DNA of 32,000 nt from Wolbachia endosymbiont of Onchocerca ochengi (GCF_000306885.1 NC_018267.1:810001-842000), one strand, 5' to 3'; positions 5,659 through 28,133 are shown, numbered from the stretch's first letter. Notes: generated from the sequence alone by a model not told the origin. Program-made: numbers and translations.

Positions 5659-7578
5659 CTATTTATTCTCTTTTTTGTTATCTATATCCTGATAATCAGA
5701 ATCTACCACTTTCCCTTCCTCATTATTTGATGTGGATGAGCTAGTAGAGTTTTCTCCACTATGTTGTTGAGATTCTTTATACATAACTTCTCCAAGCTTC
5801 ATAGATAATTGAGAGAGGTTAGTAATCTTCTGCTGTATTGAATTAGTGTCATTAACGTTACTAGATTTGCTAGCTTCCTTTAACTCATTGATCGCATTTT
5901 CAATAGCAGATTTATCGCTTGATGAAACTTTATCACCATATTCCTTCAAAGATTTTTCTGTATGATGAATTAGACTATCTGCCTGATTTTTTACTTCAAT
6001 AAATTTCTTACGCTCCTCATCTTCTTGTGCTTTCTCTTCAGCTTCTCTCACCATACGACTTATTTCGTCATCAGATAGACCACCTGAAGACTGAATACGT
6101 ATTTTTTGCTCTTTCCCAGTAGCTTTATCTTTTGCAGAAACGTGTACTATTCCATTCGCATCTATATCGAATGTCACCTCAATCTGAGGGATCCCACGAG
6201 GAGCAGGTGGTATTCCTTCTAAACTGAATTGGCCAAGCAACTTATTATCGGCTGCCAGTTTCCTCTCACCTTGATGTACTTTGATAGTAACAGCAGCTTG
6301 ATTATCTTCTGCAGTTGAAAATATCTGAGATTTTTTAGTAGGAATTGTAGTATTACGTTCAATAAGTGGAGTAAATACTCCCCCTAAAGTTTCGATACCA
6401 AGAGAAAGTGGTGTCACATCAAGCAATAACACATCTCTTACATCACCTTGAACAATTCCTGCTTGTATTGCAGCCCCAATTGCCACAACTTCATCAGGAT
6501 TTACTCCTCTATGTGGATCTTTGCCAAAGAATTCTTTAACCTTCTCAATTACTTTTGGCATACGAGTCATACCACCAACAAGCACCACTTCACCGATTTG
6601 ACTAGCAGATATACCAGCATCTTCAAGAGCTTTTTTACAAGGGATCATAGTTTTTTTAATTAAATCATTCACTAAACTTTCAAGTTTAGCCCTTGTTAAC
6701 TTCATATTTAAATGTTTTGGGCCACTTGCATCAGCTGTAATAAACGGCAGATTTATTTCTGTTTCCATTGCGCTTGATAACTCAATTTTCGCTTTTTCCG
6801 CAGCTTCTTTGACCCTCTGCATAGCCATCGGATCATTTCTTAAGCTAATGCCAGTATTTCTTTTAAACTCATCCAATAAATAACTTACTACTGCGTCATC
6901 AAAGTCTTCACCGCCAAGATGAGTATCACCGTTTGTTGCTTTTACCTCAAAAACCCCATCACCTATTTCAAGTATTGAAACATCAAATGTACCACCACCA
7001 AGGTCATATACTACTATTGTGTGTCCATGTTTTTTATCAAGACCATAAGCAAGTGCTGCAGCAGTAGGCTCATTAACTATCCTGAGTACATTTAACCCAG
7101 CAATTTTTCCTGCATCCTTTGTTGCTTGGCGTTGTGAGTCGTTAAAATATGCTGGCACTGTTATTACAGCATCCTTTACCTCTTCTCCAAGATAAGCTTC
7201 CGCTGCTTCTTTCATGTTTTGCAGTATAAATGCACCAATTTGACTAGGAGAGTATTCTTTATTACTAGATGTTTTAACCCATGCATCGCCATTTTTTGCT
7301 GCAAACACTTTATATGGAACATTGAGATTTTTTATCTCAGGATCACTATGTTGACGGCCTATTAATCTCTTAGTAGCAAAAAAGGTATTACTTGCATTTG
7401 TAGTTGCTTGTCTTTTTGCAGGAGCGCCAATCAATCTCTCTCCTGATGAAGTAAACGCAACTATGGATGGAGTAGTTCTTGCTCCTTCTTTATTTTCTAT
7501 TACCTTCGTATCTTTACCATGCATTATCGCAACACAAGAATTTGTTGTTCCAAGATCTATACCTATTGCTCTCCCCAT
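5659..7578 (-). CDS. dnaK: Molecular chaperone DnaK (Hsp70)
   Basis: [17 protein letters not shown]..., [10 protein letters not shown] and [10 protein letters not shown] are Hsp70 signatures. I chose the ATG at 7578 (protein starts [10 protein letters not shown]). A GGGAG Shine-Dalgarno sequence (complement of 7587-7591) lies 8 nt upstream of it. The ORF-track start at 7611 adds 11 non-conserved residues. No grpE or dnaJ is adjacent. Confidence 0.95.
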
Positions 7579-7665
7579 AATGAATACTCCCTTGTAAATA
7601 TTACTTAACATAAGGATATATAAGTATGGAACTTGCCAATTACAAGTCCCACTCAGGATTTCTGG

Positions 7666-9438
7666 TTAGCTATTAGAGCTCAAAAGACGTGAAAGCCATC
7701 TAGTTAACCAAAAGTTATTTTGCAATCCACCTGAGTAATTAACCTTCTCATTGTCGTTACCCTCGGTTTTATAACCAGAATTTTGCAGTGGCTTACAATC
7801 ATTTAAATTAACATTATCTCCTCGTTTTAAAATGAATGCATCTACACTTAAATTATTATCAGCATTAACGTTCAATTTAATATTGAATTCTTTTTCAATC
7901 GTAGAAACTGTATCACGCTTATTATTAAAAATGTGTGTAATAATTGAGCTATGTGCCAATAAATCAAATGATCCATTTCGGTTTCTACTAGCAACATATT
8001 GTAATTCTCTTAATACTGATGCAACAATTACTTCATTTGATTTTACTTTACCAACTCCCCTACAGTGTAAACATTCTATAGTATTGATTTCCTGTATGCT
8101 TGGTTTAATCCTTTGCCTTGAAAATACCATTAAACCAAAGTCATTTATATAGCTAAACTGAACTTTAGCTTTATCATCTTTAAATGCCTGCCTAACGGCA
8201 AATTCAACAGCTCTGCAATATTGATATTTTAACATACCAATAAAATCTACTACTATTAACCCTGACAAGCCTCTTAAATTTACTTGTCTTGATATTTCAG
8301 GTACTGCTTCCATATTGGTTCTATAAGCTGTTTCTTCTATACTATCTTCCTCCATCATTTTTCCCGAGTTTACATCTATTGAAACAAACGCTTCAGTTAA
8401 AGTTATTATTAAAGACCCACCAGATGGTAATTTTACCCTATTGCTATATAGCTCAGAAACTTGATCCTCAATTCCGTAGTAAGTAAATATCGGAACAAAA
8501 CCTCTATACAGCCTATAGCGTAACTTACTACCCTTTAATGCATTTTCAGTATATTGTTTTACTACTTCAAAAGCTTCTTTTCCAGATACTATAATTTCCA
8601 CATCATTGCTACAAAAATCACGAATAGATCTCATAATCAAGTCTGCTTCGTTATAGATCAACGATGGAACATTTGTAGAGGAAGCATTTTTTTGAATGTT
8701 CTGCCACAGTGAAAATAGATAATTATAATCCTGCTCAATTTCTTTTTTACTTTTTCCTGAGCCAATGGTCCTTATTATTAAACATGACTTTTTTGGCAAG
8801 CTTATTGAATCAAGTATGTCCTTTAATTGCTTTCTGATATTGGCATCTTCAATTTTGCGAGATATTCCACCTTTGCTCATGGAATTGGGCATGAAAATAC
8901 AGTATCTACCCACTAAAGTTATGTAAGTTGTAAATGAAGCTCCCTTATTACCTCGTTCCTCTTTAGTCAGTTGAACTAATATTTTTTGATTAACCGCAAT
9001 AACATCCTGTAACTTGTACTTCTTATACAAAGATACTTCCCTTACAAAGCTACTACTCGATTCATTAATATTTTTATTAGCTGCAGAATCTGAAGAAACA
9101 TTCGTTGATACACTACTATTTTCCTCTGTGTAATCACCATTTGAACAACTTTCAAAAAAAGCTTCCTTTTCTTTTTCTGAAATATTAAAATAATCTGGAG
9201 ATATTTCGGAAAAAGATAAAAACCCTTGCTTATTTTTTCCATATTCAATAAATACAGCCTGCAAAGAAGGCTTTATACGCTTTACATAAGCAACGTATAT
9301 ATTTCCTCTTAACTGCCTTTTCTCTTTAAATTCTTGTTCAAACTCTACAATCTTATTATTGACTGATAAAGCAACCCTTACTTCATCAGAGCAGATAGAA
9401 TTTTCTATCAATAGTAACCTTTTACTATTATTTACCAC
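7666..9438 (-). CDS. rne: Ribonuclease E/G family endoribonuclease; short form with an insertion in the S1 domain
   Basis: 590 aa. NIYVAYVKRIKPSLQAVFIEYG..KQGFL (S1 domain), QLTKEERGNKGASFTTYITLVGRY and VSIDVNSG are catalytic-core motifs of RNase E/G. No long C-terminal scaffold region is present. Confidence 0.85.
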   Translation of the reverse strand: MVNNSKRLLLIENSICSDEVRVALSVNNKIVEFEQEFKEKRQLRGNIYVAYVKRIKPSLQAVFIEYGKNKQGFLSFSEISPDYFNISEKEKEAFFESCSNGDYTEENSSVSTNVSSDSAANKNINESSSSFVREVSLYKKYKLQDVIAVNQKILVQLTKEERGNKGASFTTYITLVGRYCIFMPNSMSKGGISRKIEDANIRKQLKDILDSISLPKKSCLIIRTIGSGKSKKEIEQDYNYLFSLWQNIQKNASSTNVPSLIYNEADLIMRSIRDFCSNDVEIIVSGKEAFEVVKQYTENALKGSKLRYRLYRGFVPIFTYYGIEDQVSELYSNRVKLPSGGSLIITLTEAFVSIDVNSGKMMEEDSIEETAYRTNMEAVPEISRQVNLRGLSGLIVVDFIGMLKYQYCRAVEFAVRQAFKDDKAKVQFSYINDFGLMVFSRQRIKPSIQEINTIECLHCRGVGKVKSNEVIVASVLRELQYVASRNRNGSFDLLAHSSIITHIFNNKRDTVSTIEKEFNIKLNVNADNNLSVDAFILKRGDNVNLNDCKPLQNSGYKTEGNDNEKVNYSGGLQNNFWLTRWLSRLLSSNS

Positions 9439-9810: not shown

Positions 9811-10086
9811 ATGCAAAATTTACAATTAAGTTATCCAATAGTGATAGAGTTGGGTGACATAAAAGACACAAAACTGAAATTAATGAAGGTTATCGCACAG
9901 CTAATAAGTAAGAAATATAGAACACAAAAAAAAGCAGCAACTGCTCTAAAAATTGATCAACCTAAAGTATCTCAAATTAATAAGTCAAAAATCGAAGGGT
10001 TTTCTTTAGAGTACCTGTTTAACTTACTAGTTGCACTTGGTCAAGATATAGATATGGAAATAAGGTATAGTTCTAAATCTATATAA
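9811..10086 (+). CDS. XRE-family helix-turn-helix protein, antitoxin-like (COG5606/HigA-like architecture)
   Basis: 91 aa. TQKKAATALKIDQPKVSQINKSKIEGFSLEYLFNLLVALGQDIDMEI matches the pattern TQ.eaA..LgvtQPrVSdl..GKi..FSld.L...l.aLG..v.#.#. That pattern is typical of small XRE antitoxins normally paired with an upstream Gp49/RelE-like toxin. No such partner is present. Confidence 0.7.
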   Translation: MQNLQLSYPIVIELGDIKDTKLKLMKVIAQLISKKYRTQKKAATALKIDQPKVSQINKSKIEGFSLEYLFNLLVALGQDIDMEIRYSSKSI

Positions 10087-10559
10087 TAAGGTTTCCTATT
10101 CGCTCTTATTTAGGAAGATATGCCGATAATACTAACAAGAATTTCCAAAATCTATACTTAATAGTTTTTTAGGTTACTAGCAATAGATCAAGCATATAAG
10201 AACACTGTATTATTATATTTTATAAAAACGGGATACATTTACAGCTCTATAACTTGTTTGAATACTTTGCTGATATGCCTTAGCTTGAGTGAGTTAATAA
10301 CGTAAAAACGAACTTTTCTTACACGTGCTTGTTAGCTTGATAAAACTAGTTTACTGGGTACATTCTTTATCAACCTTTTTTTATGTAAAGGCATATACTA
10401 GTTGATAAATTTATAAAAAACTTACAGGATAAATTGAGTCAGTAAAAGATTTTTATTATCTTTAGCTTTAATTAAATTTCTATATATAGTTTTTCTATTT
10501 TTATATACTGCCGTGCGTTACTTCTTGAAGATATAAACTAGAATTAAGATATACTTAGT

Positions 10560-11540
10560 GAAGGTGATACTTCTAATATTATTAGAAGCTTCTCCAAGTC
10601 CTAAAGTTGTTATTGAAAAGATGATAATAAATAAACCGAATTACAAAGAACTAATTAAAAGCCTTCGCCCTGAAAATTTTATCTTCAGTACTTGCATATC
10701 ATAAACATCAAAAGTTGCTATTACACATCAGTACTACGTACATGCTGAATGTTTCTACAAGCTTTTGATAAATATTTACTAGTTCCTTTTTGGATATATG
10801 AATATATTATGAATCCTATGAAAAAGAAACAATTGTAACTGCACAAACCAAGAAATTAGCAGTGTAAGGGTGATCATGAGTAAATGCCTCAATAAAAGGC
10901 TCACTTAAAAACGCTGAGTAGACTTTTTCGATAGTAATTGTAAGAACAAGTAGAAGAAAATCTCCAGTTATAATTCTTTTAAGGTACATAAAAAGCCTTA
11001 TATGATTTAAGCTTGTTCGAAAATAAAATAAGTACCGTTTATCTAAAGCCAGTTATAACTTTGTCATAGATTGTTAAAATTCCATATTAAGTACTAATTT
11101 AACAACTTTTTCAATAAACTCTGGACGGCATATTTTTATACCACTGCTCCTGTACTAAAGGCTAATACAGCAATTTTGCGAGAACCGGTGTATAAGTAAC
11201 TCCTTAGCACATTCAAAGGAATGTTTTTCTTTATTTTCTATTCCTTCATCTCGTCTCAGGTTCCAGGAAAAGGCTCTTTAAAAACAGAAAATAATGGATT
11301 TAAAAATGCATAAAGTTTTCAACTTTTCGCGAAGAGTTACTATATGGTTATGGGTGAATCTTGCAAAATTACATACTCAAAAGTTATGCTCTATTGATAT
11401 ATGGCTTCGACAGTCTGTAGTGAGCATGAGTGTGCAAATTTACTTACCAAATGGAAATCAGATTCGGATGTAACTTACTATGTAATTTTTTATTATATTT
11501 GCTTAAATTCATCATTATTTAACCATGAAACGGCTCTTTA
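10560..11540 (-). pseudogene. bioA: bioA relic (adenosylmethionine-8-amino-7-oxononanoate aminotransferase)
   Basis: Minus-strand hand translation across frames gives several matches. 11403-11438 reads FAHSCSLQTVEA (cf. F.ADSGS.AVE.A). 11139-11177 reads KIAVLAFSTGAVV (cf. IAA.I.EP.VQGAGGM). About 11040-11075 reads QSYNWL*INGTYFIFEQA*II*GFLCTLKEL*LE (cf. DEV.TGFGRTG..FA.E...I.PD.LC..K.LTGG). 10840-10881 reads THDHPYTANFLVCA (cf. HGH(S/T)YT.NPLACA). There are many stops. About 80 aa of the N-terminus appears to be deleted. Confidence 0.7.
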
Positions 11541-12170
11541 ATTTACTCGAGAGAGGTATTTGCATTAGATGTTTCGTTATTGATCCGCTATAATTTAAGT
11601 ACTGATGCTTTAAGACCTTTACTCCGTCATGACAATTCTATGCTTCAAAATTATCCATGAAACTAGGTGATCCGTTTAGAACCATTCCTAGAATAGGAGC
11701 ATTTCTAGCACGTAGAGCTTTCAGATTTAGCAACGGTGATTAGACTGTATAAAGTGTAGATCTGGCAACTAGAACTCTCGGAATGATAAGTTTTTTTGAT
11801 TAGATCAATCATCAGCATAGAGTTCTGTTAACTAAAATTTCTCTAGCACCTTCTATAATTAAGTTATGTATTTTAAGCAAACCTAATCTTATCAATATCG
11901 ATATTATCCATTGCTAAACAATGTTGCTAAGTGAGAAGATAGATATTCTTTATGAATGAAACTTTTTTATTAATATTTACGTTAATCAAGCCGCTTATTT
12001 GATCACTATATTGTACTTAGAATAGCTTCAGTCTAGATAATTTTGAAATATAAATATCAAACTTACAAGCAAAGATAATTGCTTACAATAGTTTTACTAA
12101 CACTAGCCTGTTTTTTTTTTGAAATATCCGCACTTACTCAAAATTTCAAAGAAAATATTTTATAAGTAGC
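11540..12170 (-). pseudogene. bioD: bioD relic (dethiobiotin synthetase)
   Basis: Minus-strand translation of 11827-11863 gives LIIEGAREILV (cf. L.#EGAGG#.VP). Translation of 11665-11778 gives RVLVARSTLYTV*SPLLNLKALRARNAPILGMVLNGSP (cf. #.LV....LG.INH.LLT.EAL...g#...G.#.Ng). The expected P-loop region coincides with a T10 homopolymer at 12111-12120. Confidence 0.7.
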
Positions 12171-12660
12171 ATTGACCTTATTTGCATAGTCTTTGAATTA
12201 TCCTTTTCAGATCAGGCAAAAGAATTATTTAATTACCAAATTTGTCGCAAATTTCCAAGATACCTGATAAATGCACTTGTGCTTGGAAAATACAATGTAA
12301 ATTCTTATGAATTAAAAAAACACCCTTTTAGCTCTAGGTAAGGTAGATAGCTTTCCAATTCTTGTTTAGGTAAATACTAATAAGTTAGTACAGGTAAATG
12401 AGGACTTCATAAAAATTCTAGTTCATTTATTGGATGAACTACTCAGTAAATGTAAAAGGAAAGCGAAAACATCTGGATTACTGTATGATTTTTTTACTAT
12501 TTTTTAAACTTCTTATTTACTGGAGTGGTAAGTTCAAAATGACAAGGCGTGAAAACTAAGATCTAGCGTTTCTATCTTGCCTAAGATGAATTCAACTTCT
12601 CTTTGCAACATGTTCTATATCTGTTTTCAAATCTCAAGCATATCGTGGATAAAATCCAAA
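12170..12660 (-). pseudogene. bioC: Probable bioC relic (SAM-dependent methyltransferase), heavily deleted
   Basis: Minus-strand translation of 12524-12562 gives ILVFTPCHFELTT followed by PVNKKF. This is compatible with methyltransferase motif I (ILD#GCGTG.LT..L...F). The position between the bioF/bioH and bioD relics fits. Only one motif is legible. Confidence 0.35.
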
Positions 12661-13085
12661 AAAACAAATTTTCAATAATAGGATGAGCTTGCTTTGCTAA
12701 AAAACTACCTTATATGTACTTCTTTTGCAGCCACATTGAGAAAATGTGTAATTTTTTGCTTACACGTATCCATCTTAAAGCTTTGTATCGTTGCTTTTAA
12801 TCTATTTGTGATTTTTGCGTAATCACAAGGTTAAATCTCAGAAAATTGATAAAAGCTTGAACGTTGGTAAATATATTCAACTTTCCACTTAAGGAGGTTA
12901 GCTTCATTAGTCTGAGAACATACCTAATACTAATAGATATACTATCCTCTGACAGATCTAGATTTTCTTTTTCAAAAGAACTAAGATTTAAACGATAGTG
13001 GAAAATTTAAAAAAATCATTCATTTATAAGAAGGTAGAAAAACTTGTGACCAATCATCATATCCATGACGAAATACAAAGTTGTA
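12660..13085 (-). pseudogene. Possible bioH-like alpha/beta-hydrolase relic, heavily deleted
   Basis: Immediately downstream of the bioF relic end, minus-strand translation of 13038-13076 gives VFRHGYDDWSQVF (cf. #.##HGWG.....W of BioH-type hydrolases). I could not read a nucleophile-elbow motif. The call rests mostly on position. Confidence 0.25.
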
Positions 13086-14230
13086 GTTTATGTTTTTTGA
13101 AAGAATATTTATTGAATAATTTACGTTACTTTTAGTGTTATTCATACTGAGTATAATACGTAATCTTGATGTGTTAGGAAAAACAGGTTGCATGTAGCAA
13201 AGGTAATTAACTCTGTTTCAAAAGCTCTTCCTTTGAACTCATCATTGTATTTTGCTACCTAAAATTGTCAGCATAATTGTGTAGCTAAGTTACCTGTGTT
13301 AAATTCAAGGTTTCACAATTTGTCTTTCAAGTTTTCAGCTTTAAAAAATAAGGTACTACCTGATCAGCAAGATGTTTTGTACTAAATTCTTAGGCTTTGG
13401 CTGCTGCATCATGATCATTGGAAAAAGAGAAACTGAATAAATAAATAATCCTTACACCTATTGATAAGATAATCCTTTATAATATTAGAACAAGCAACAT
13501 ATGTACTAAAGTATCATAAGACTTTACTAACAGTGTCTGAAACTAAATGTGGAATTTTTTTAAAGGTTAACGGTAGAGAAGCAGTACCTATTATGTCCAA
13601 TAATACCTGTTGAATGTGTTTCATTTAAATACAGAAGGCTTTACGTTCTTTGCTAAGATTAAAAAATTTTCTCTGTTGATGCGATGCTCCGTCCATCTTG
13701 AAAATTGTTTCAGTAATAATGAACTTCAATAGTTCAGTCTAATATAGTTCACATAACTTATGCTTATTGGAAAAGATAATAGATTTACTACCACAAGTGT
13801 TGATTAATTCGATAAGTTTCTAAGGAGTGTTAAATTAGCCTGGAAGTTAGAGTGAAAAATGAGAGCTAACTCGGTTCTTTTATCCTAAACGATTTTCTTC
13901 TCAAAGTGTTTAAATATTTTTTATTACCTAAAAGTAACTGAGAACAGGTAGACTCTATTACAAATCACTGGTTCTACAAGTTTTATTGCCTAAAATAGCG
14001 TTTCCTATTGACTTGAATAGAGGTTATTATTAAAATAAAGAAATTAATAAAATTCTTACCATTTAAGTCAAAGTTTCTTATAATCCATGATGTTTTTCTT
14101 TATTTCATAATATATTACAACACTCATTGTATAGCTTGTACATAGTCCTGTTCTCTTATCAAGAAAGAACTTAAATCATGAAAGAAATCAACTTTTGCTA
14201 AGAACAATGTACACGTACCTAGAATTAAGG
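13080..14230 (-). pseudogene. bioF: bioF relic (8-amino-7-oxononanoate synthase; class-II PLP alpha-oxoamine synthase family)
   Basis: Minus-strand hand translation gives several matches. 13831-13866 reads ALIFHSNFQANL (cf. AL.F.SG(F/Y).AN). Around 13688-13702 it reads IITETIFKMDGAS (cf. #.TE.#FSMDGD.AP), followed by LLYLNETHSTGIIG (cf. L.VD(E/D)AH..G..G). The segment with the PLP-lysine codon at 13523-13525 reads IPHLVSDTVSKVL*YFSTYVACSNIIKDYLINRCKDYLFI. 13134-13172 reads TSRLRIILSMNNT (cf. RPPTVP.GT.RLR#.L...H). There are multiple stops and at least three frame changes. The family is certain. The BioF assignment, as opposed to ALAS or Kbl, rests on context. Confidence 0.75.
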
Positions 14231-14269
14231 TCTGTTATGGTAATATTCTTAGTATGGGTATTATTAAAA

Positions 14270-14700
14270 CTAGTAAAGATCAAATAAAGATGCTCTAATC
14301 TCATTGCTAACTTGGATGAGCCTTCAGAATCAGTACCAGTTAATATACTGATAAAAATTCTTAGAGCTCCTCTTGAAAACATAGCCAATGTTGATTTATT
14401 CAATTTTTTTTACTATTACAATAGTTAGAATTATACTGCAAAAGTTCTATATTCGTTTGTTAGCTAGGTGGAAGGAAAAAAAGTATAGGACGAACTTGCA
14501 AACACTATGTTCTCTTACTGGTACCAATTCTGTTTTTACGGTGAAAAATTATTTGTAGCTTACAATCTGATACTAAACAAGATAGTTATTACTTATTTCA
14601 AAAATTAGGATTCCTAAAACTTGCTCTGTTTAGAAAAAATTAAGAACTCTCTCTACGAGAAGGACGGCTTTTTAAAATAGAAAATTATCATAAATTTTCC
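14270..14700 (-). pseudogene. bioB: bioB relic (biotin synthase); C-terminal part legible, N-terminal part deleted or unreadable
   Basis: The 71-aa ORF at 14188-14403 contains LAMFSRGALRIFISILTGTDSEGSSKLAMRLEHL at about 14290-14388. This aligns with the E. coli BioB C-terminus [38 protein letters not shown]. Upstream frames at about 14450-14520 give a ...PPS*QTNIELL... segment compatible with P.SVPIN.L. I could not read the radical-SAM CxxxCxxC motif with confidence. Confidence 0.5.
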
Positions 14701-14879
14701 TATTTTTCTCAAATTAATCAGGATTATCCTTTTAATATAAATTACTTATTACTTAAATAGTATAGCCATTTTAAGTATTTTTTTATTGGCTAGTTCATAG
14801 AGTTAGTGTCATATGTATAAGATGTTAAAGTAATCTATTATAGTGGATTTATATAAAAAAGCTCATAAAACACAACTAG

Positions 14880-14952
14880 TGGCTGAGGAGGGATTTGAAC
14901 CCACAACCAAGAGGTTATGATCCTCCTGCTCTGCCAACTGAGCTACTCAGCC
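14880..14952 (-). tRNA. tRNA with CAU anticodon (elongator Met or lysidine-modified Ile2; not the initiator)
   Basis: The reverse complement reads GGCTGAGTAGCTCAGTTGGCAGAGCAGGAGGATCATAACCTCTTGGTTGTGGGTTCAAATCCCTCCTCAGCCA. The acceptor stem is a perfect 7 bp and the anticodon loop is ATCATAA. The T loop is TTCAAAT, with one U-U mismatch at 50:64. No CCA is encoded. The G1:C72 pair and the A29:U41 pair argue against tRNA-fMet. The AGAGCAGG....CTTGGT context resembles ileX-type tRNAs, but I cannot decide by eye. Confidence 0.85.
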
Positions 14953-23836: not shown

Positions 23837-23969
23837 GTTTTATTGTAGTTTAAATCTTATGGATGCTTTTATGTACATAAATGGTATCACCACAGTGTCA
23901 GTTACTTGGATGATAGGAAGAACTTATTATAACACTGATACCTGTAAATTTATTGCGCGATTTTTGTGA

Positions 23970-26376
23970 ATGAAAATGAACTCCTTTTAAAGATAGTTCT
24001 AGGGAAAATTACTTAATTTTAAAAGTAACCTTAGAAATATATACAAAGGGTATCAAGAGCAGTAATGTAGTATATCATCACTCTTTTATATTTTTATATT
24101 GAAATATGATGACTCCATTGATAAACCATACAAAATTACCAAAGTTGCTTTTATATCGTTGTATGATAAAAGTAATAAAATACCAACTCTTAGTGAAATC
24201 CTGTAACAGCACTAAACCATTTTTGCCACCTTTATTACTACCCTGCATTGAAAAAGGGAAAGAAGATTTAAAGTTTGAAATTTGCAATTATAAATGGTAA
24301 AAAAAATTAAGTAAGTATGATATGGATTACATTTTATACAAAAGTTTCTTCAAGGAAGCAAAAACAGGTCGTATAAGTAATATAACTCCTTTGTCTATTT
24401 TAATGATAAATTAGTAAACATAGAACTTCAACATATCTTATACCAGGAAACTTCTGGCAGTGGTGTTAAATAAAGCATATTGAAAGCATTTTCTCAGTAA
24501 AACCTAAGAACTTATTAGTATATAGCACAAAATAAGAATGGTAAATACTATTTTGAACAGAAAATAAATATTATTGATTCACGAGATAATAAAGTGTTGC
24601 AAAAAGCATAATATCTTACAGTACAGAAGAAGCAGAAAAGCAACAGCAAATGATATACATATACTATCTAATATACTAGATGATATATTATCATCAAGTA
24701 AGTGCATTTATTAAATTTCTCACAAAAGGTCCCATAGGTAAACAACTAAAAACTCTTACTAACACTACTATACTAATGACAAACTTATAAACTCTATAGA
24801 AAAGTACTTAACCGACGACCAGTCAAGGCTTGGTAGATTATTGTTAATCACTGACTACAAATCTAGTTTAGAAATTAAACGAAACAAAACTGAAAATCAT
24901 TTCTCTATATTTAAATGAAGATCGACTCTTATCTTTTATTAAAGTATTGAAACCAAATCAGATAAAAAACACCTGATCTAATTTAAAAGCAAATCAGTCC
25001 AGAGTACTTGTTTAAAATATAGACTATCATCAACTTGTAGAACTAGCAAAAGATTTAGCTGAATAATATTTAACCATTCTTCCTAAAGAACGAGTAATTA
25101 CTAAATTTAAGTTCTAGTAGACATTTTAGAGAAAGATAAATTAAGAGCTTTAATTAATAAGCTAGATTACTATAAACTCAAAATGGTAGCTCAAAATCTA
25201 ACTGATCCTAGAAAAATTAAAGTTATAATTAATTCTATAATTGATGAGAAACCCTAAACTTTCATTCAGAGCGTACATAATAAGCAATTAGCAAAACTTC
25301 TAAATAATCTCGATGCAAAAGAGCTTAAAGATATCTATTAACAAGCTATCTTACGAGAAGAATGTTTTACCCCGTGATTGGTATAACCTTAGGCAACCAA
25401 GATCAATCCAAAGCTATTATTGAAAAGTTGAAAGAGAAATTTAAGAAGATGAAGTGAGAAGTTGAAGGAGATTACTTTTAGTAAAGTTGACTAAATGCAC
25501 TTTAGAGAGAGAGAGAAAGATTTTTGAAAGTGTAATAATGTTTCTCCTCAAGATTACAATTCTGAACCTCATAGAGAAGCATGACATATATTTAACATTA
25601 ACCCAAACATCATAAATTAGTATTTATAAGCCTAAAGAGAAAGTACTGTAGTGTCGAGGGCTGGTTTAAAATTTTTGAACAACATTTTGAGTAATTTATA
25701 TGTATAATAATTTATAGAATAAAGTTCAATCCTTGAAGAGGAATGATGCTTATAGCAGTACAAGGAAAAAGACTAATGAAAAAGCAATAGGTCAGATTAT
25801 GAGAATATCGATCTTGTTATGCTAAAATAAATACTGACAAGTATGTAACAGACTTGAAAAAAGTAGCAAAAAAGAAATTGTTAGTACTTTAAGTACTGGG
25901 TTACAAACAGTACAAGCCTAAATCTAAGAGACACTATTGATAATAGTTAAAGATTTGATAAAAAATCTTAGTAACTTTAAATAGTAATTAACTGGCTTTT
26001 AATGAGGAAAAACTAGCATTTTTCAGATCTATATAAATGTAACATATAAAATTATAGCTGTACCAGCTAAATATCTAAAAGGATTGCGTATAAGTGATCC
26101 ACATTTAGAGCTTTAGCAATTCATTTACTTTGGCTTATCATTACAACGGCAGCTAAACGGCCAACTAAATATCTACCTGTTGTTGGTTAAAGAAGAATGG
26201 AATAATTAACGGGAAAACTCACAAAAATAAGACCTATTACGTATTAAGTGATATGTACGCAAGTAGAGAAAACTTTGATAATGTCGATTTACTACTAGAT
26301 TATGTTATAAACATACTTCTCAAAATAAAACACGTTTATACTAACTATATTTACGGAATTCTGCAATTTAAATTTT
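23970..26376. other. About 2.4 kb of ORF-free, stop-riddled DNA; presumed decayed gene(s), unassigned
   Basis: The only ORFs are two mutually antisense ORFs of about 65 aa at 24078-24300. Plus-strand frames at 24.8-25.5 kb give interrupted Leu/Lys/Asn-rich helical segments, for example LINKLDYYKLKMVAQNLTDPRKIKVIINSIIDEKP*TFIQSVHNKQLAKLLNNLDAKELKDIY. Minus-strand frames look hydrophobic, but that can be an AT-bias artefact. I recognise no family motif. Confidence 0.3.
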
Positions 26377-26405
26377 GCTTACATTGTGTTACAATGTGTA
26401 TAATT
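26376..26405 (+). promoter_or_regulatory. Candidate sigma-70 promoter of the nitroreductase gene, with a palindrome in the spacer
   Basis: TTGCTT (26376-26381), 18 nt, TATAAT (26400-26405). The ATG lies 20 nt downstream. The spacer holds the inverted repeat ACATTGT-gtt-ACAATGT (26382-26398). A perfect -10 hexamer is not rare in AT-rich DNA, so confidence is modest. Confidence 0.3.
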
Positions 26406-26424
26406 CATATTCTTAAATGAAAAA

Positions 26425-26988: not shown

Positions 26989-28133
26989 CCACTTTTCTGT
27001 TAATACTATAAAATATGGTTGTTTAGTAAGTAGGTTTTCTCATTTTTCTTTCTTGAACTTCTTGTCAAGATTTTCATAAAATTATTTATTTTTAAACCCG
27101 TAATTCATGCTACTTTATATATCTTCGCAAAAGTTATAAATAGCAGAATACCAATTATTTCATTAAAAACAGGAGCCTTCAGATAGTATTTCAGCACTTT
27201 TAAATAGCAATGTTATCAAATCCTTTAATAAGGATCTCATATAATTTGGTATATTATACTTTTCTTAAAAAACTTTTATGGTTCTCATATATGATTTTAA
27301 CTTACCTTTATTTCAATGCTCTACTTTGTTTGTTTAAAAGGATGAATATATCTCAGATAGGAAAATTTTCTCTAGGTTTACTTTAAGATAAGCAAAAGGT
27401 TTGTATATATAGAATGAATAAAGAATATTTTGATCGTCAATTGATTTTGTTCATCAAAAGCACTGAGATCAGTATAGCTACTGCTATTAAAATTACAGAT
27501 GTTGCTTAGTCAACATTGCGAATGCTTCTGATAATAAGATTATAAAAATTAAACAAATGATTTTTGGATTTCATCTTAATAGTTTACTTAGTAAGTATCA
27601 GGAGCCTGAATACTAAATCGTCTTCTAGATATAGTTCATTTGAGATTCTATATCGAATAATAGCAGAATGATTTTCAATCCTTTTTGCAAAGTCTTGCCA
27701 AAGTTTTGCTGCTTGTTTTTGAGAAACTTAACTTAGTTATATAAATAATCTTTGTCATTGTTATTTTTGCTTCCGCCTTAAACCAAATAAACTTAGGTTA
27801 TCAAAAGTATCTAAAATATTTTTTAGTACTATCAGATCTTTAGAAAGCAGATTCTTGACAAGAACCTACATTACCAAGAGGAAAGTTACACTGCATAGCT
27901 TCAAATTTGTCAAGAGCAGGATGAAAAAAGCTAATTTTAGAACTCTGCTGCTTTAATTAGTCCATTACTAATTTTTCTATTAGAAACACTTTCTTCCTTT
28001 CCAACTTAAGTTCAGCTGAAAGAGCATTTCACTATTGCTTGACATTAACTTAGCATCTACACTACAAAAAACTATAGCGTATAAAACAGCTATAATCAGA
28101 AAAGAAGTTTTTGTTTATATAGTCTTTGCTATA
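26989..28133. other. About 1.1 kb of ORF-free DNA; presumed decayed gene sequence, unassigned
   Basis: There are no ORFs of 60 aa or more. The minus strand at about 27,650-28,030 gives NALSAELKLERKKVFLIEKLVMD*LKQQSSKISFFHPALDKFEAMQCNFPLGNVGSCQESAF*. This is protein-like, but I do not recognise it. Confidence 0.25.

Follow-up and report, generated by a model that had tools for sequence, protein, structure and literature searches.

The window analysed here, a stretch of 32,000 nucleotides from Wolbachia wOo, the obligate intracellular endosymbiont of Onchocerca ochengi, contains pseudogenes of all six genes for biotin (bioB, bioF, bioH, bioC, bioD, bioA) between positions 10551 and 14640. Taken as a whole, the region is with high confidence best explained as a decayed, laterally acquired biotin operon of the BOOM type. 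A reading of the sequence alone had described this apparently empty region as the corpse of a complete biotin operon in which every gene is broken, and our results agree with this. All six genes were recovered by frameshift-tolerant alignment as pseudogenes only, packed into 4090 bp. Every one of them scored far beyond the null expectation, with 49-60% amino acid identity to the wCle proteins. The 30 in-frame stops, 46 frameshifts and large deletions are spread over all six genes, and the operon has lost about 24% of its length. Between the end of the XRE gene at 10086 and the tRNA-Met gene at 14879-14952, no open reading frame of at least 80 amino acids was found. Since intact reading frames are absent in all six genes, the relic lacks the capacity to make biotin and is a dead member of the BOOM family, not a working one. 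Its GC content is 29.7%, compared with 32.1% for the window.

Detection of the six relics

The six BOOM proteins of wCle were used as references and aligned to the unmodified DNA of the window with a home-made program for frameshift-aware protein-to-DNA alignment (DP). On the correct strand the DP scores were 201-583 per gene, whereas the wrong strand gave 36-53. Twelve dinucleotide shuffles gave mean scores of 40-46 with a maximum of 64. The six relic scores lie 37-79 SD above the shuffles, on the expected strands and in BOOM order. The sequence-only reading, which had proposed this type of alignment, had also named the outcomes that would speak against it, namely no matches to Bio proteins, or matches to unrelated paralogues in non-collinear order; neither was observed.

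The relic is only just detectable: a Pfam search of the raw three-frame translations found BioD alone (AAA_26, E 1.6e-6), one gene out of six. When raw pieces of the BioF and BioB relics were searched against proteins, 4 and 1 word-sharing candidates, respectively, and zero matches were obtained; almost no exact 5-mers are common to the relic and any real protein. With the repaired translation, the BioA and BioF proteins of Wolbachia BOOM were the top matches among 5.8 billion clusters. An Rfam search of the relic found nothing.

Anatomy of the pseudogenes

The bioB pseudogene (biotin synthase) is located at 14209-14640 on the plus strand, followed in order by bioF, bioH, bioC, bioD and then bioA on the minus strand. 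It scored 301, versus 40 on the wrong strand, with 58% identity and 4 frameshifts. Only the C-terminal 140 codons remain, corresponding to residues 179-318 of wCle BioB; the ~178 codons at the start, and with them the radical-SAM cysteine motif, have been deleted, so that 45% of the length is kept. Also with E. coli BioB, tblastn gave a match on the plus strand (E 9e-8). A BioB C-terminus had been read at 14290-14388 on the minus strand. The signal is there ('NLDEPSESVPVNILIKILRAPLENIAN'), but on the plus strand, the minus strand being antisense. The six genes are therefore not all collinear on the minus strand as had been proposed, although this holds for the five from bioF to bioA.

The bioF pseudogene (8-amino-7-oxononanoate synthase, 14201-13095, minus strand) had the highest score of 583, with 54.6% identity, 10 stops and 14 frameshifts. 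Residues 4-396 were aligned, codons ~150-183 are deleted and 92% of the length is kept. The alignment span reaches about 60 nt into the region between bioB and bioF, and the ATG is preserved at 14143. The predicted PLP-lysine codon at 13523-13525 is indeed AAA (K), within 'TVSKVL'. When a BioF fragment was compared with plasmids by tblastn, the best matches were all annotated as bioF. An origin from ALAS or KBL was ruled out by these matches and by the repaired translation, which led to BOOM BioF.

The bioH pseudogene (BOOM-type pimeloyl-ACP methyl ester esterase, 13091-12768, minus strand) scored 201 compared with 40±4.3 for the shuffles, at 48.6% identity. It consists of the N-terminal half only (residues 1-108 of 217, 50% of the length), and the HG start was found at its expected place in 'FVFRHGYD'. 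The bioC pseudogene (malonyl-ACP O-methyltransferase, 12736-12130, minus strand) scored 310 compared with 42±3.4, at 50.8% identity, with 6 stops, 6 frameshifts and 80% of its length kept. Its SAM-binding methyltransferase motif I could be located, in a degenerate or destroyed form ('A*DLKTD'). The bioH relic showed no signal with the hydrolases of E. coli, Azospirillum and Desulfobacteraceae (scores 27-30), and neither BioC nor BioH of these bacteria gave a signal on the relic (scores 25-37), so that bioC and bioH are detectable with BOOM references only.

The bioD pseudogene (dethiobiotin synthetase, 12101-11533, minus strand) keeps 93% of its length, with a score of 367, 57.8% identity, 6 stops and 8 frameshifts; both expected blocks were found, as 'IIEGAREILV' and 'LLNLKALRARNAPILGMVLNG'. 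The bioA pseudogene (adenosylmethionine-8-amino-7-oxononanoate transaminase, 11482-10551, minus strand) scored 550 with 60.1% identity, 6 stops and 12 frameshifts. Codons ~97-161 are deleted, 72% of the length is kept, and the BioA blocks read earlier by eye are present in the alignment. A stop-free piece of 78 amino acids had BioA equivalogs as its best matches among 1.84 billion proteins; the top ones are anonymous metagenomic BioAs, which do not reveal the BOOM affinity. These matches, together with that of the repaired translation to BOOM BioA, ruled out another class-III aminotransferase.

The insertion site and its counterparts in related Wolbachia

The relic is bounded by native genes. 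On the left is an XRE-like HTH gene (9811-10086, plus strand) and on the right a tRNA-Met(CAT) gene (14879-14952, minus strand, found by ARAGORN and Rfam) with its 3' end toward the relic, in a conserved rpmG-XRE-tRNA-Met-purB synteny. The tRNA-Met gene adjoins purB in all Wolbachia loci compared. The XRE gene is not the orphan it had been taken for, as a homologous ORF stands beside tRNA-Met/purB in Wolbachia without the relic. Arrival by insertion next to the tRNA had also been suggested. The relic does abut the 3' side of tRNA-Met, but its borders showed no att-like repeat of the tRNA beyond the chance-level length of 9 nt, leaving tRNA-targeted integration unsupported. The flanks showed no mobile-element scars and no transposase or integrase remnants.

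The synteny comparison that had been called for detected homologous relics at the tRNA-Met/XRE site in WOLB0982 and wDimm of supergroup C, with about 92% DNA identity to the wOo relic in WOLB0982 and stronger erosion in wDimm. In Wolbachia of supergroups D and F the corresponding locus is empty, and the gaps at this site in wStur, wLbra, wLsig and wMoz showed no BOOM trace. In wCtub and wDcau (supergroup J), lenient-scoring blastn detected collinear DNA traces with E values of 2e-16 to 4e-7, where the best of 42 controls reached 9e-5, and one protein-level score (111) was added to this signal. About 4.1 kb of DNA is left in wOo and about 2.4 kb in wDimm, and the traces in supergroup J amount to about 1 kb.

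When wOo/WOLB0982 were compared with wDimm, stops were found in the same codons of bioF (32, 150), bioC (121, 191) and bioD (34), and a 1-nt insertion at bioF codon 171 is common to both. Most of the shared stops are of the types CAA>TAA/TAG and TGG>TAG/TGA, and at 3 of the 5 codons the two lineages have different stop triplets. Since nonsense changes of these types arise most easily when mutation is AT-biased, and since the triplets differ, the common stops may be parallel hits. The wDimm relic, the supergroup J traces and the same-codon stops suggest one old insertion, probably inactivated early, before the lineages split. We slightly favour the view that the sites in supergroups C and J (wOo, wOv, WOLB0982, wDimm; wCtub, wDcau) are orthologous, and that the operon was acquired once and probably inactivated before their divergence.

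It is unlikely that BOOM was inserted separately and later into one hotspot in the lineages of wOo-type Wolbachia, wDimm and supergroup J, and decayed in each. Wolbachia has acquired BOOM repeatedly, with five acquisitions counted by Driscoll 2020, a tRNA-adjacent site could be a hotspot, and the relics differ among themselves (73% DNA identity) as much as they differ from wCle (67-74%). However, DNA that evolved neutrally after a split is expected to show 73% identity. The boundaries and the orientation are the same in all lineages, wDimm is co-linear with the flanks 10111-10478 and 14672-14878, and the same-codon stops and the common 1-nt insertion also argue for a single insertion.

The relic belongs to the BOOM family of Wolbachia

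The order and orientation of the six genes are the same as in five intact BOOM loci, those of wCle, Cardinium cEper1, wCfeT, wStri and a Wolbachia MAG. With independent guides, the score sums were 2301 for wCle, 2295 for wStri, 2122 for wCfeT and 1671 for Cardinium, whereas the non-BOOM proteins of Azospirillum, E. coli and Desulfobacteraceae reached 728, 449 and 380 on the relic. Over 1231 columns the relic shared 57% of its amino acids with wCle and wStri, 46% with Cardinium and 22-29% with non-BOOM proteins. The match to a mobile B-F-H-C-D-A operon that had been suggested is thus supported: by gene order, divergent bioB, scores and trees, the relic is BOOM.

Neighbour-joining (NJ) trees of 1155-1231 columns separated a BOOM clade from free-living bacteria with 100% bootstrap. 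The relic was placed within {wCle, wStri, wCfeT}, also with 100% bootstrap and with each of three guide proteins, in NJ trees that are built on a pseudogene translation and have a very long relic branch and few outgroups; the set left out Neorickettsia, Lawsonia, R. buchneri, Ehrlichia and Anaplasma. On the question of a horizontal operon or vertical ancestry, for which a phylogeny had been proposed, the nesting within the Wolbachia BOOM clade favours the former. We regard it as very improbable that the bio genes are a vertical remnant from an Anaplasmataceae ancestor, like the scattered genes of Ehrlichia and Anaplasma, and not a lateral BOOM. Ca. Mesenet, the sister genus of Wolbachia, has related bio genes in a different arrangement, with an identity of 75% to Wolbachia BOOM (51% for the relic), which makes a deep presence in the family conceivable. 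However, the layout of the relic matches BOOM exactly and includes bioH, which is missing in Mesenet, the relic falls inside the wCle/wStri/wCfeT clade and not outside Wolbachia BOOM, and supergroups D and F have nothing at this site.

Inside the bioA relic, a 57-aa ORF at 10816-10989 is identical to wOo CCF78424.1, whose GenBank name 'alpha-ketoglutarate decarboxylase' is wrong for what is a piece of BioA. This identity and the relatives of PurB place the window in Wolbachia wOo. That a part of the relic is still used, either as this 57-78 aa BioA fragment or as a transcript from a retained bioB/bioF promoter region, is the least probable reading, because the ORF, although 98% conserved in wOv and related assemblies, annotated as a gene in GenBank and found in a genome whose pseudogenes are mostly transcribed (Darby 2012), comes from the middle of a PLP enzyme, with HGH degraded to HDH and TGG to TGD, is not clearly more conserved (1-2 changes in 57 residues) than the whole relic (~92% DNA identity to WOLB0982), and belongs to a genome for which Darby 2012 detected no pseudogene peptides.

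Discussion

BOOM biotin provisioning in bedbugs and planthoppers is the textbook case of a lateral gene cluster that makes Wolbachia a nutritional mutualist. In this pathway, BioC methylates malonyl-ACP, fatty-acid synthesis extends the product and BioH removes the methyl ester, giving pimeloyl-ACP. This is converted by BioF, BioA, BioD and BioB to KAPA, DAPA, dethiobiotin and finally biotin.

The history of the decayed BOOM operon may have been the following. A compact cassette of 5.4 kb, with bioB divergent from bioF-bioH-bioC-bioD-bioA, would have been transferred laterally from another Wolbachia or a co-resident intracellular bacterium into an ancestor of the supergroup C Wolbachia of filarial nematodes, probably C+J. 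It would have landed beside purB, with the XRE gene on one side and the 3' end of tRNA-Met on the other. After selection was lost, all six genes would have gained stops, frameshifts and internal deletions. The leftover DNA would then have drifted neutrally to a low GC content and been removed slowly and independently in each lineage. Judged from the shared lesions, the operon probably died before the filarial lineages split. As to its past function, which is deduced from the completeness of the gene set only, it is reasonable to assume that an ancestor of this lineage made biotin; inactivation may, however, have followed shortly upon the operon's arrival.

The core finding for wOo is already known, as two papers (bioRxiv 10.1101/2022.09.06.506778; PMC11376236) credit a 'completely disrupted' or 'highly disrupted' wOo biotin operon to Nikoh et al. 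2014 (PNAS 111:10257). The locus described here is evidently that operon. We found no literature on remnants in wDimm or supergroup J, with Nikoh et al. 2014 represented by the papers citing it, and bio pseudogenes are absent from the supplement of Sinha 2023. Publication of the supergroup J genomes dates from 2020, so that they were not included in Nikoh et al. 2014. Possibly new are the orthologous relic in wDimm, the traces in wCtub and wDcau, and the same-codon stops of wOo and wDimm. Our analysis adds the exact anatomy and evidence that the Wolbachia of Dirofilaria and supergroup J share the insertion of wOo in increasingly eroded form. If confirmed, this dates the gain and the loss before the radiation of these lineages. 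It would be an old, sixth BOOM acquisition beside the five now counted, and a vitamin-provisioning cassette would have been carried and then discarded by the ancestor from which a large clade of obligate mutualists of nematodes descends. The relic would also offer dated, neutrally decaying DNA on which to measure how fast reduced Wolbachia genomes mutate and lose sequence. The dead filarial copy shows that BOOM, once acquired, need not be kept, and that biotin is not the basis of the obligate symbiosis with nematodes. Surveys of pathways that use predicted proteins will record biotin genes as never present in supergroups C and J.

Among known systems, the BOOM loci of wCle (AP013028, BAP00143-BAP00148) and wStri are nearest to the relic by score and tree. 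They share its six genes, the order and the divergent bioB, with 49-60% amino acid and about 70% DNA identity, but in the relic all genes are dead, and the radical-SAM half of bioB and the C-terminal half of bioH are missing. The flanks also differ, being native housekeeping genes for the relic and transposases, phage or plasmid islands for intact BOOM. The BOOM of Cardinium hertigii cEper1 (CCM10336-CCM10341) has the same architecture, yet is farther away (46%, DP 1671) than wCle (57%, 2301). Partly decayed BOOM copies are known from wCfeF, where bioB is frameshifted, and from the Francisella-like endosymbiont of Hyalomma marginatum, where 5 of the 6 bio genes are pseudogenised. In both, as in the relic, the biotin pathway was lost after relaxed selection. 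Whereas these two represent early decay, in which a gene carries one lesion or a few, the wOo relic is far more decayed.

Detection and anatomy of the biotin gene relics

The window carries gatB, dnaK, rne, rpmG, the gene of an XRE-like HTH protein, purB, rplI and dnaE. Between the XRE gene (end at 10086) and the tRNA-Met gene (14879-14952, minus strand), which a sequence-only reading had described as gene-free, not a single ORF of at least 80 aa was found, and the three minus-strand frames held 130-141 stops each. Pfam searches on the raw frames recognised the BioD family alone (AAA_26, E 1.6e-6). With the Bio proteins of E. coli, Azospirillum and Desulfobacteraceae as first tblastn queries, minus-strand pieces of BioA (E 6e-10), BioD (5e-9) and BioF (6e-8) were detected together with a plus-strand BioB piece (14224-14566, E 9e-8); BioC and BioH gave no signal in the region with these queries. 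When the BioF fragment was searched against 72,556 plasmids, every match was annotated as bioF and none as ALAS. For BioA, the longest fragment free of stops (78 aa), searched with HMMER against 1.84 billion proteins, gave 60 matches at E<1e-3; all ten that were tested were TIGR00508 BioA equivalogs and not other class-III aminotransferases.

Unmodified window DNA was used throughout for the anatomy, the scoring and the affinity tests. It was aligned with a purpose-written local protein-to-DNA program with frameshift states and collinear chaining, guided by the proteins of wCle, the bedbug Wolbachia with an intact horizontally mobile biotin operon (BOOM). The bioB relic lies on the plus strand (14209-14640; wCle residues 179-318, score 301, 58% identity, 4 frameshifts). 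On the minus strand follow bioF (14201-13095; score 583, 54.6% identity, 10 stops, 14 frameshifts), bioH (13091-12768; residues 1-108 of 217, score 201, 48.6% identity), bioC (12736-12130; score 310, 50.8%), bioD (12101-11533; score 367, 57.8%) and bioA (11482-10551; score 550, 60.1%, codons ~97-161 gone). In bioF, codons ~150-183 are gone, the ATG is retained at 14143 and the PLP lysine is present at 13523-13525, where it had been predicted. The same wCle proteins scored 36-53 on the wrong strand, and 12 dinucleotide-preserving shuffles gave means of 40-46 (SD 3-8) with a maximum of 64. The claimed six-gene operon was therefore confirmed with scores of 201-583, and its collinearity on the minus strand held for bioF-H-C-D-A but not for bioB. 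The relic measures 4090 bp, compared with 5371 bp in wCle, where the operon is intact; the GC content of the relic is 29.7% versus 32.1% for the window.

An intact cassette of this kind would have provided the canonical pathway, with BioC/BioH-primed pimelate synthesis followed by BioF, BioA, BioD and BioB. From the completeness of the gene set, we infer that an ancestor may have supplied biotin to its host. The data equally allow that the insertion was never selected in a nematode host and decayed from the outset. No working part is left in the relic.

Several further observations were made. The wCle BioF as called starts ~20 codons upstream of its likely true start. This 'N-terminus' (6844-6905 of the wCle locus L054) aligns at the DNA level to window 14201-14144, and therefore wOo still retains some of the intergenic (promoter) region between bioB and bioF. 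The 57-aa ORF at 10816-10989 (minus strand) is 100% identical to wOo CCF78424.1, and the wOv homologue differs by one residue. Since this ORF is an internal piece of the BioA pseudogene, from mid-protein, its GenBank product name, 'alpha-ketoglutarate decarboxylase', is a mis-annotation. The purB ORF extends 13 codons beyond the conserved PurB end (14915-14952, minus strand; relatives align to residues 1-430 only); this extension, also seen in some other Wolbachia, covers 38 nt of the tRNA-Met gene. The stretches 23837-26424, 1-2000 and 26989-28034 are without an ORF of at least 80 aa and have 27-28% GC and an inverted skew. Pfam gave no match in the three plus-strand frames of 23837-26424; since it also missed five of the six bio relics, these stretches could be other decayed genes.

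The relic in related Wolbachia and its insertion site

The PurB protein of the window is 97% identical to that of the uncultured Wolbachia WOLB0982, 88% to that of wDimm (Dirofilaria immitis, supergroup C) and 87% to that of wCtub (Cruorifilaria, supergroup J). WOLB0982 has the same relic with 92-95% DNA identity and a better preserved bioF (score 747). wDimm has a shorter homologous relic, identical in site and orientation (73-79% DNA identity; BioF 285, BioH 176, BioC 351, BioD 90). It still contains bioH parts that are gone from wOo; therefore, deletions went on independently after the split. The wOo/WOLB0982 lineage and wDimm have nonsense mutations at the same codons of bioF (32, 150), bioC (121, 191) and bioD (34), and WOLB0982 and wDimm have in common the bioD codon 20 nonsense and a 1-nt insertion at bioF codon 171. 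These same-codon stops are suggestive, though not proof, of an inactivation before the wOo-wDimm split, because most affect CAA or TGG codons, the easiest targets under AT-biased mutation.

In the wCtub gap, the BioF protein scored 111 (shuffles 37.8±5.6, maximum 57), and at the DNA level this gap matched, in collinear order, bioB, bioF and the 3' end of bioA from the wOo relic, from WOLB0982 and from intact BOOM (E 2e-16 to 2e-7). In wDcau, the gap matched bioC/bioD and the 3' end of bioA (E 2e-11 to 4e-7). The best of 42 reversed or shuffled controls reached E 9e-5, and the supergroup D, F and 'wStur' gaps gave nothing below 1e-4 in the same DNA comparison.

In supergroup D and F Wolbachia (wLsig, wLbra, wMoz, Paracimex), the XRE gene is located 0.1-1.1 kb from tRNA-Met/purB, with no BOOM signal in the XRE-tRNA-Met gaps. 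The XRE gene, previously regarded as an orphan, is therefore native synteny and did not arrive with the island. Insertion targeted at the tRNA gene found no backing: the far boundary has no repeat of the tRNA end and the locus no integrase or transposase remnant. Taken together, the sequence-only reading of the relic is supported with three corrections: the strand of bioB, the XRE gene and the missing att evidence.

At the same tRNA-Met/XRE site, the Wolbachia 'wStur' has a 1.9-kb ORF-poor gap (L009 11371-13279) with no detectable BOOM similarity. Between tRNA-Met and the bioB relic, the non-coding segment 14668-14760 shows 74% conservation in wDimm and wDcau, and 93 bp of it match an unrelated wCle intergenic spot (L054 21167-21259) with 80% identity. 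Rfam gave no match for the segment, which may represent a small repeat or a regulatory element.

The simplest reading is that a single insertion occurred in the ancestor of supergroups C and J, before their divergence, and would have been followed by long, slow erosion.

Relation to published work

The wOo genome paper describes the biotin pathways only as almost entirely lost. The core finding is already known, because two papers explicitly state a disrupted biotin operon in wOo (bioRxiv 10.1101/2022.09.06.506778, crediting Nikoh et al. 2014, and PMC11376236). A supergroup C or J relic goes unmentioned in Lefoulon 2020, Driscoll 2020 and Sinha 2023; possible novelties are the wDimm relics at the orthologous site and the supergroup J traces. 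The interest is modest; it would be higher if the C and J orthology were confirmed and unreported.

Affinity and layout of the operon

Since exact 5-mers of the raw relic peptides are almost absent from database proteins, the relics of BioF and BioA were joined across frameshifts into a hybrid query, with universally conserved motifs alone restored, which was used for retrieval only. Among 5.8 billion clusters, the BioA and BioF of Wolbachia BOOM ranked first (group A strains, wStri, wCle, wCfeT, Nomada, wApol, wVulC, wCfeF), followed by Ca. Mesenet and Cardinium. Whole operons were compared for wCle (L054), Cardinium cEper1 (L055), wCfeT (L056), wStri (L057), a Wolbachia MAG (L059) and Ca. 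Mesenet (L058). Each lineage was guided by its own proteins, so no common guide biased the summed scores, which were 2301 for wCle, 2295 for wStri, 2122 for wCfeT, 1800 for the Wolbachia MAG, 1710 for Mesenet (five genes), 1671 for Cardinium, 728 for Azospirillum, 449 for E. coli and 380 for Desulfobacteraceae. Over 1231 concatenated columns, the relic was 57% identical to wCle and wStri, 54% to wCfeT, 51% to Mesenet, 46% to Cardinium and 22-29% to non-BOOM sequences.

The proposed tree check placed the relic within the BOOM clade and within {wCle, wStri, wCfeT} in 100% of NJ bootstrap replicates, with wCle, wCfeT or Cardinium guiding the reading path, and as sister to wCle+wStri in 69-100%. 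A horizontal-operon origin is thus supported by sequence affinity, and a vertical origin of the Ehrlichia type is very unlikely in this comparison with Wolbachia, Mesenet, Cardinium, Azospirillum, E. coli and Desulfobacteraceae.

The order bioA-D-C-H-F-B is established, and the operon is known to move among Cardinium, Lawsonia, Neorickettsia, R. buchneri pREIS2, Legionella, Midichloria and some Wolbachia. The sequence-only reading was right about this type of operon. A Desulfobacteraceae MAG (L047 572-4789) has bioB-F-H-C-D on a single strand, the BOOM order except that bioB is not inverted and bioA is missing, and its sequences are just 22-35% identical to BOOM or the relic; purB (7611-8906) follows ~2.8 kb downstream of these genes, beyond two ORFs. 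In Ca. Mesenet, whose genus is sister to Wolbachia, BOOM-related genes (L058 899-9287) are present that are 75% identical to Wolbachia BOOM. Unlike BOOM, its bioB-F-C-D are co-directional on one strand, bioA is 3.6 kb off and bioH is absent. In contrast, all five BOOM loci (wCle, Cardinium, wCfeT, wStri and the Wolbachia MAG) show a tight bioF-bioH-bioC-bioD-bioA block with a divergent bioB, the same layout as in the relic.
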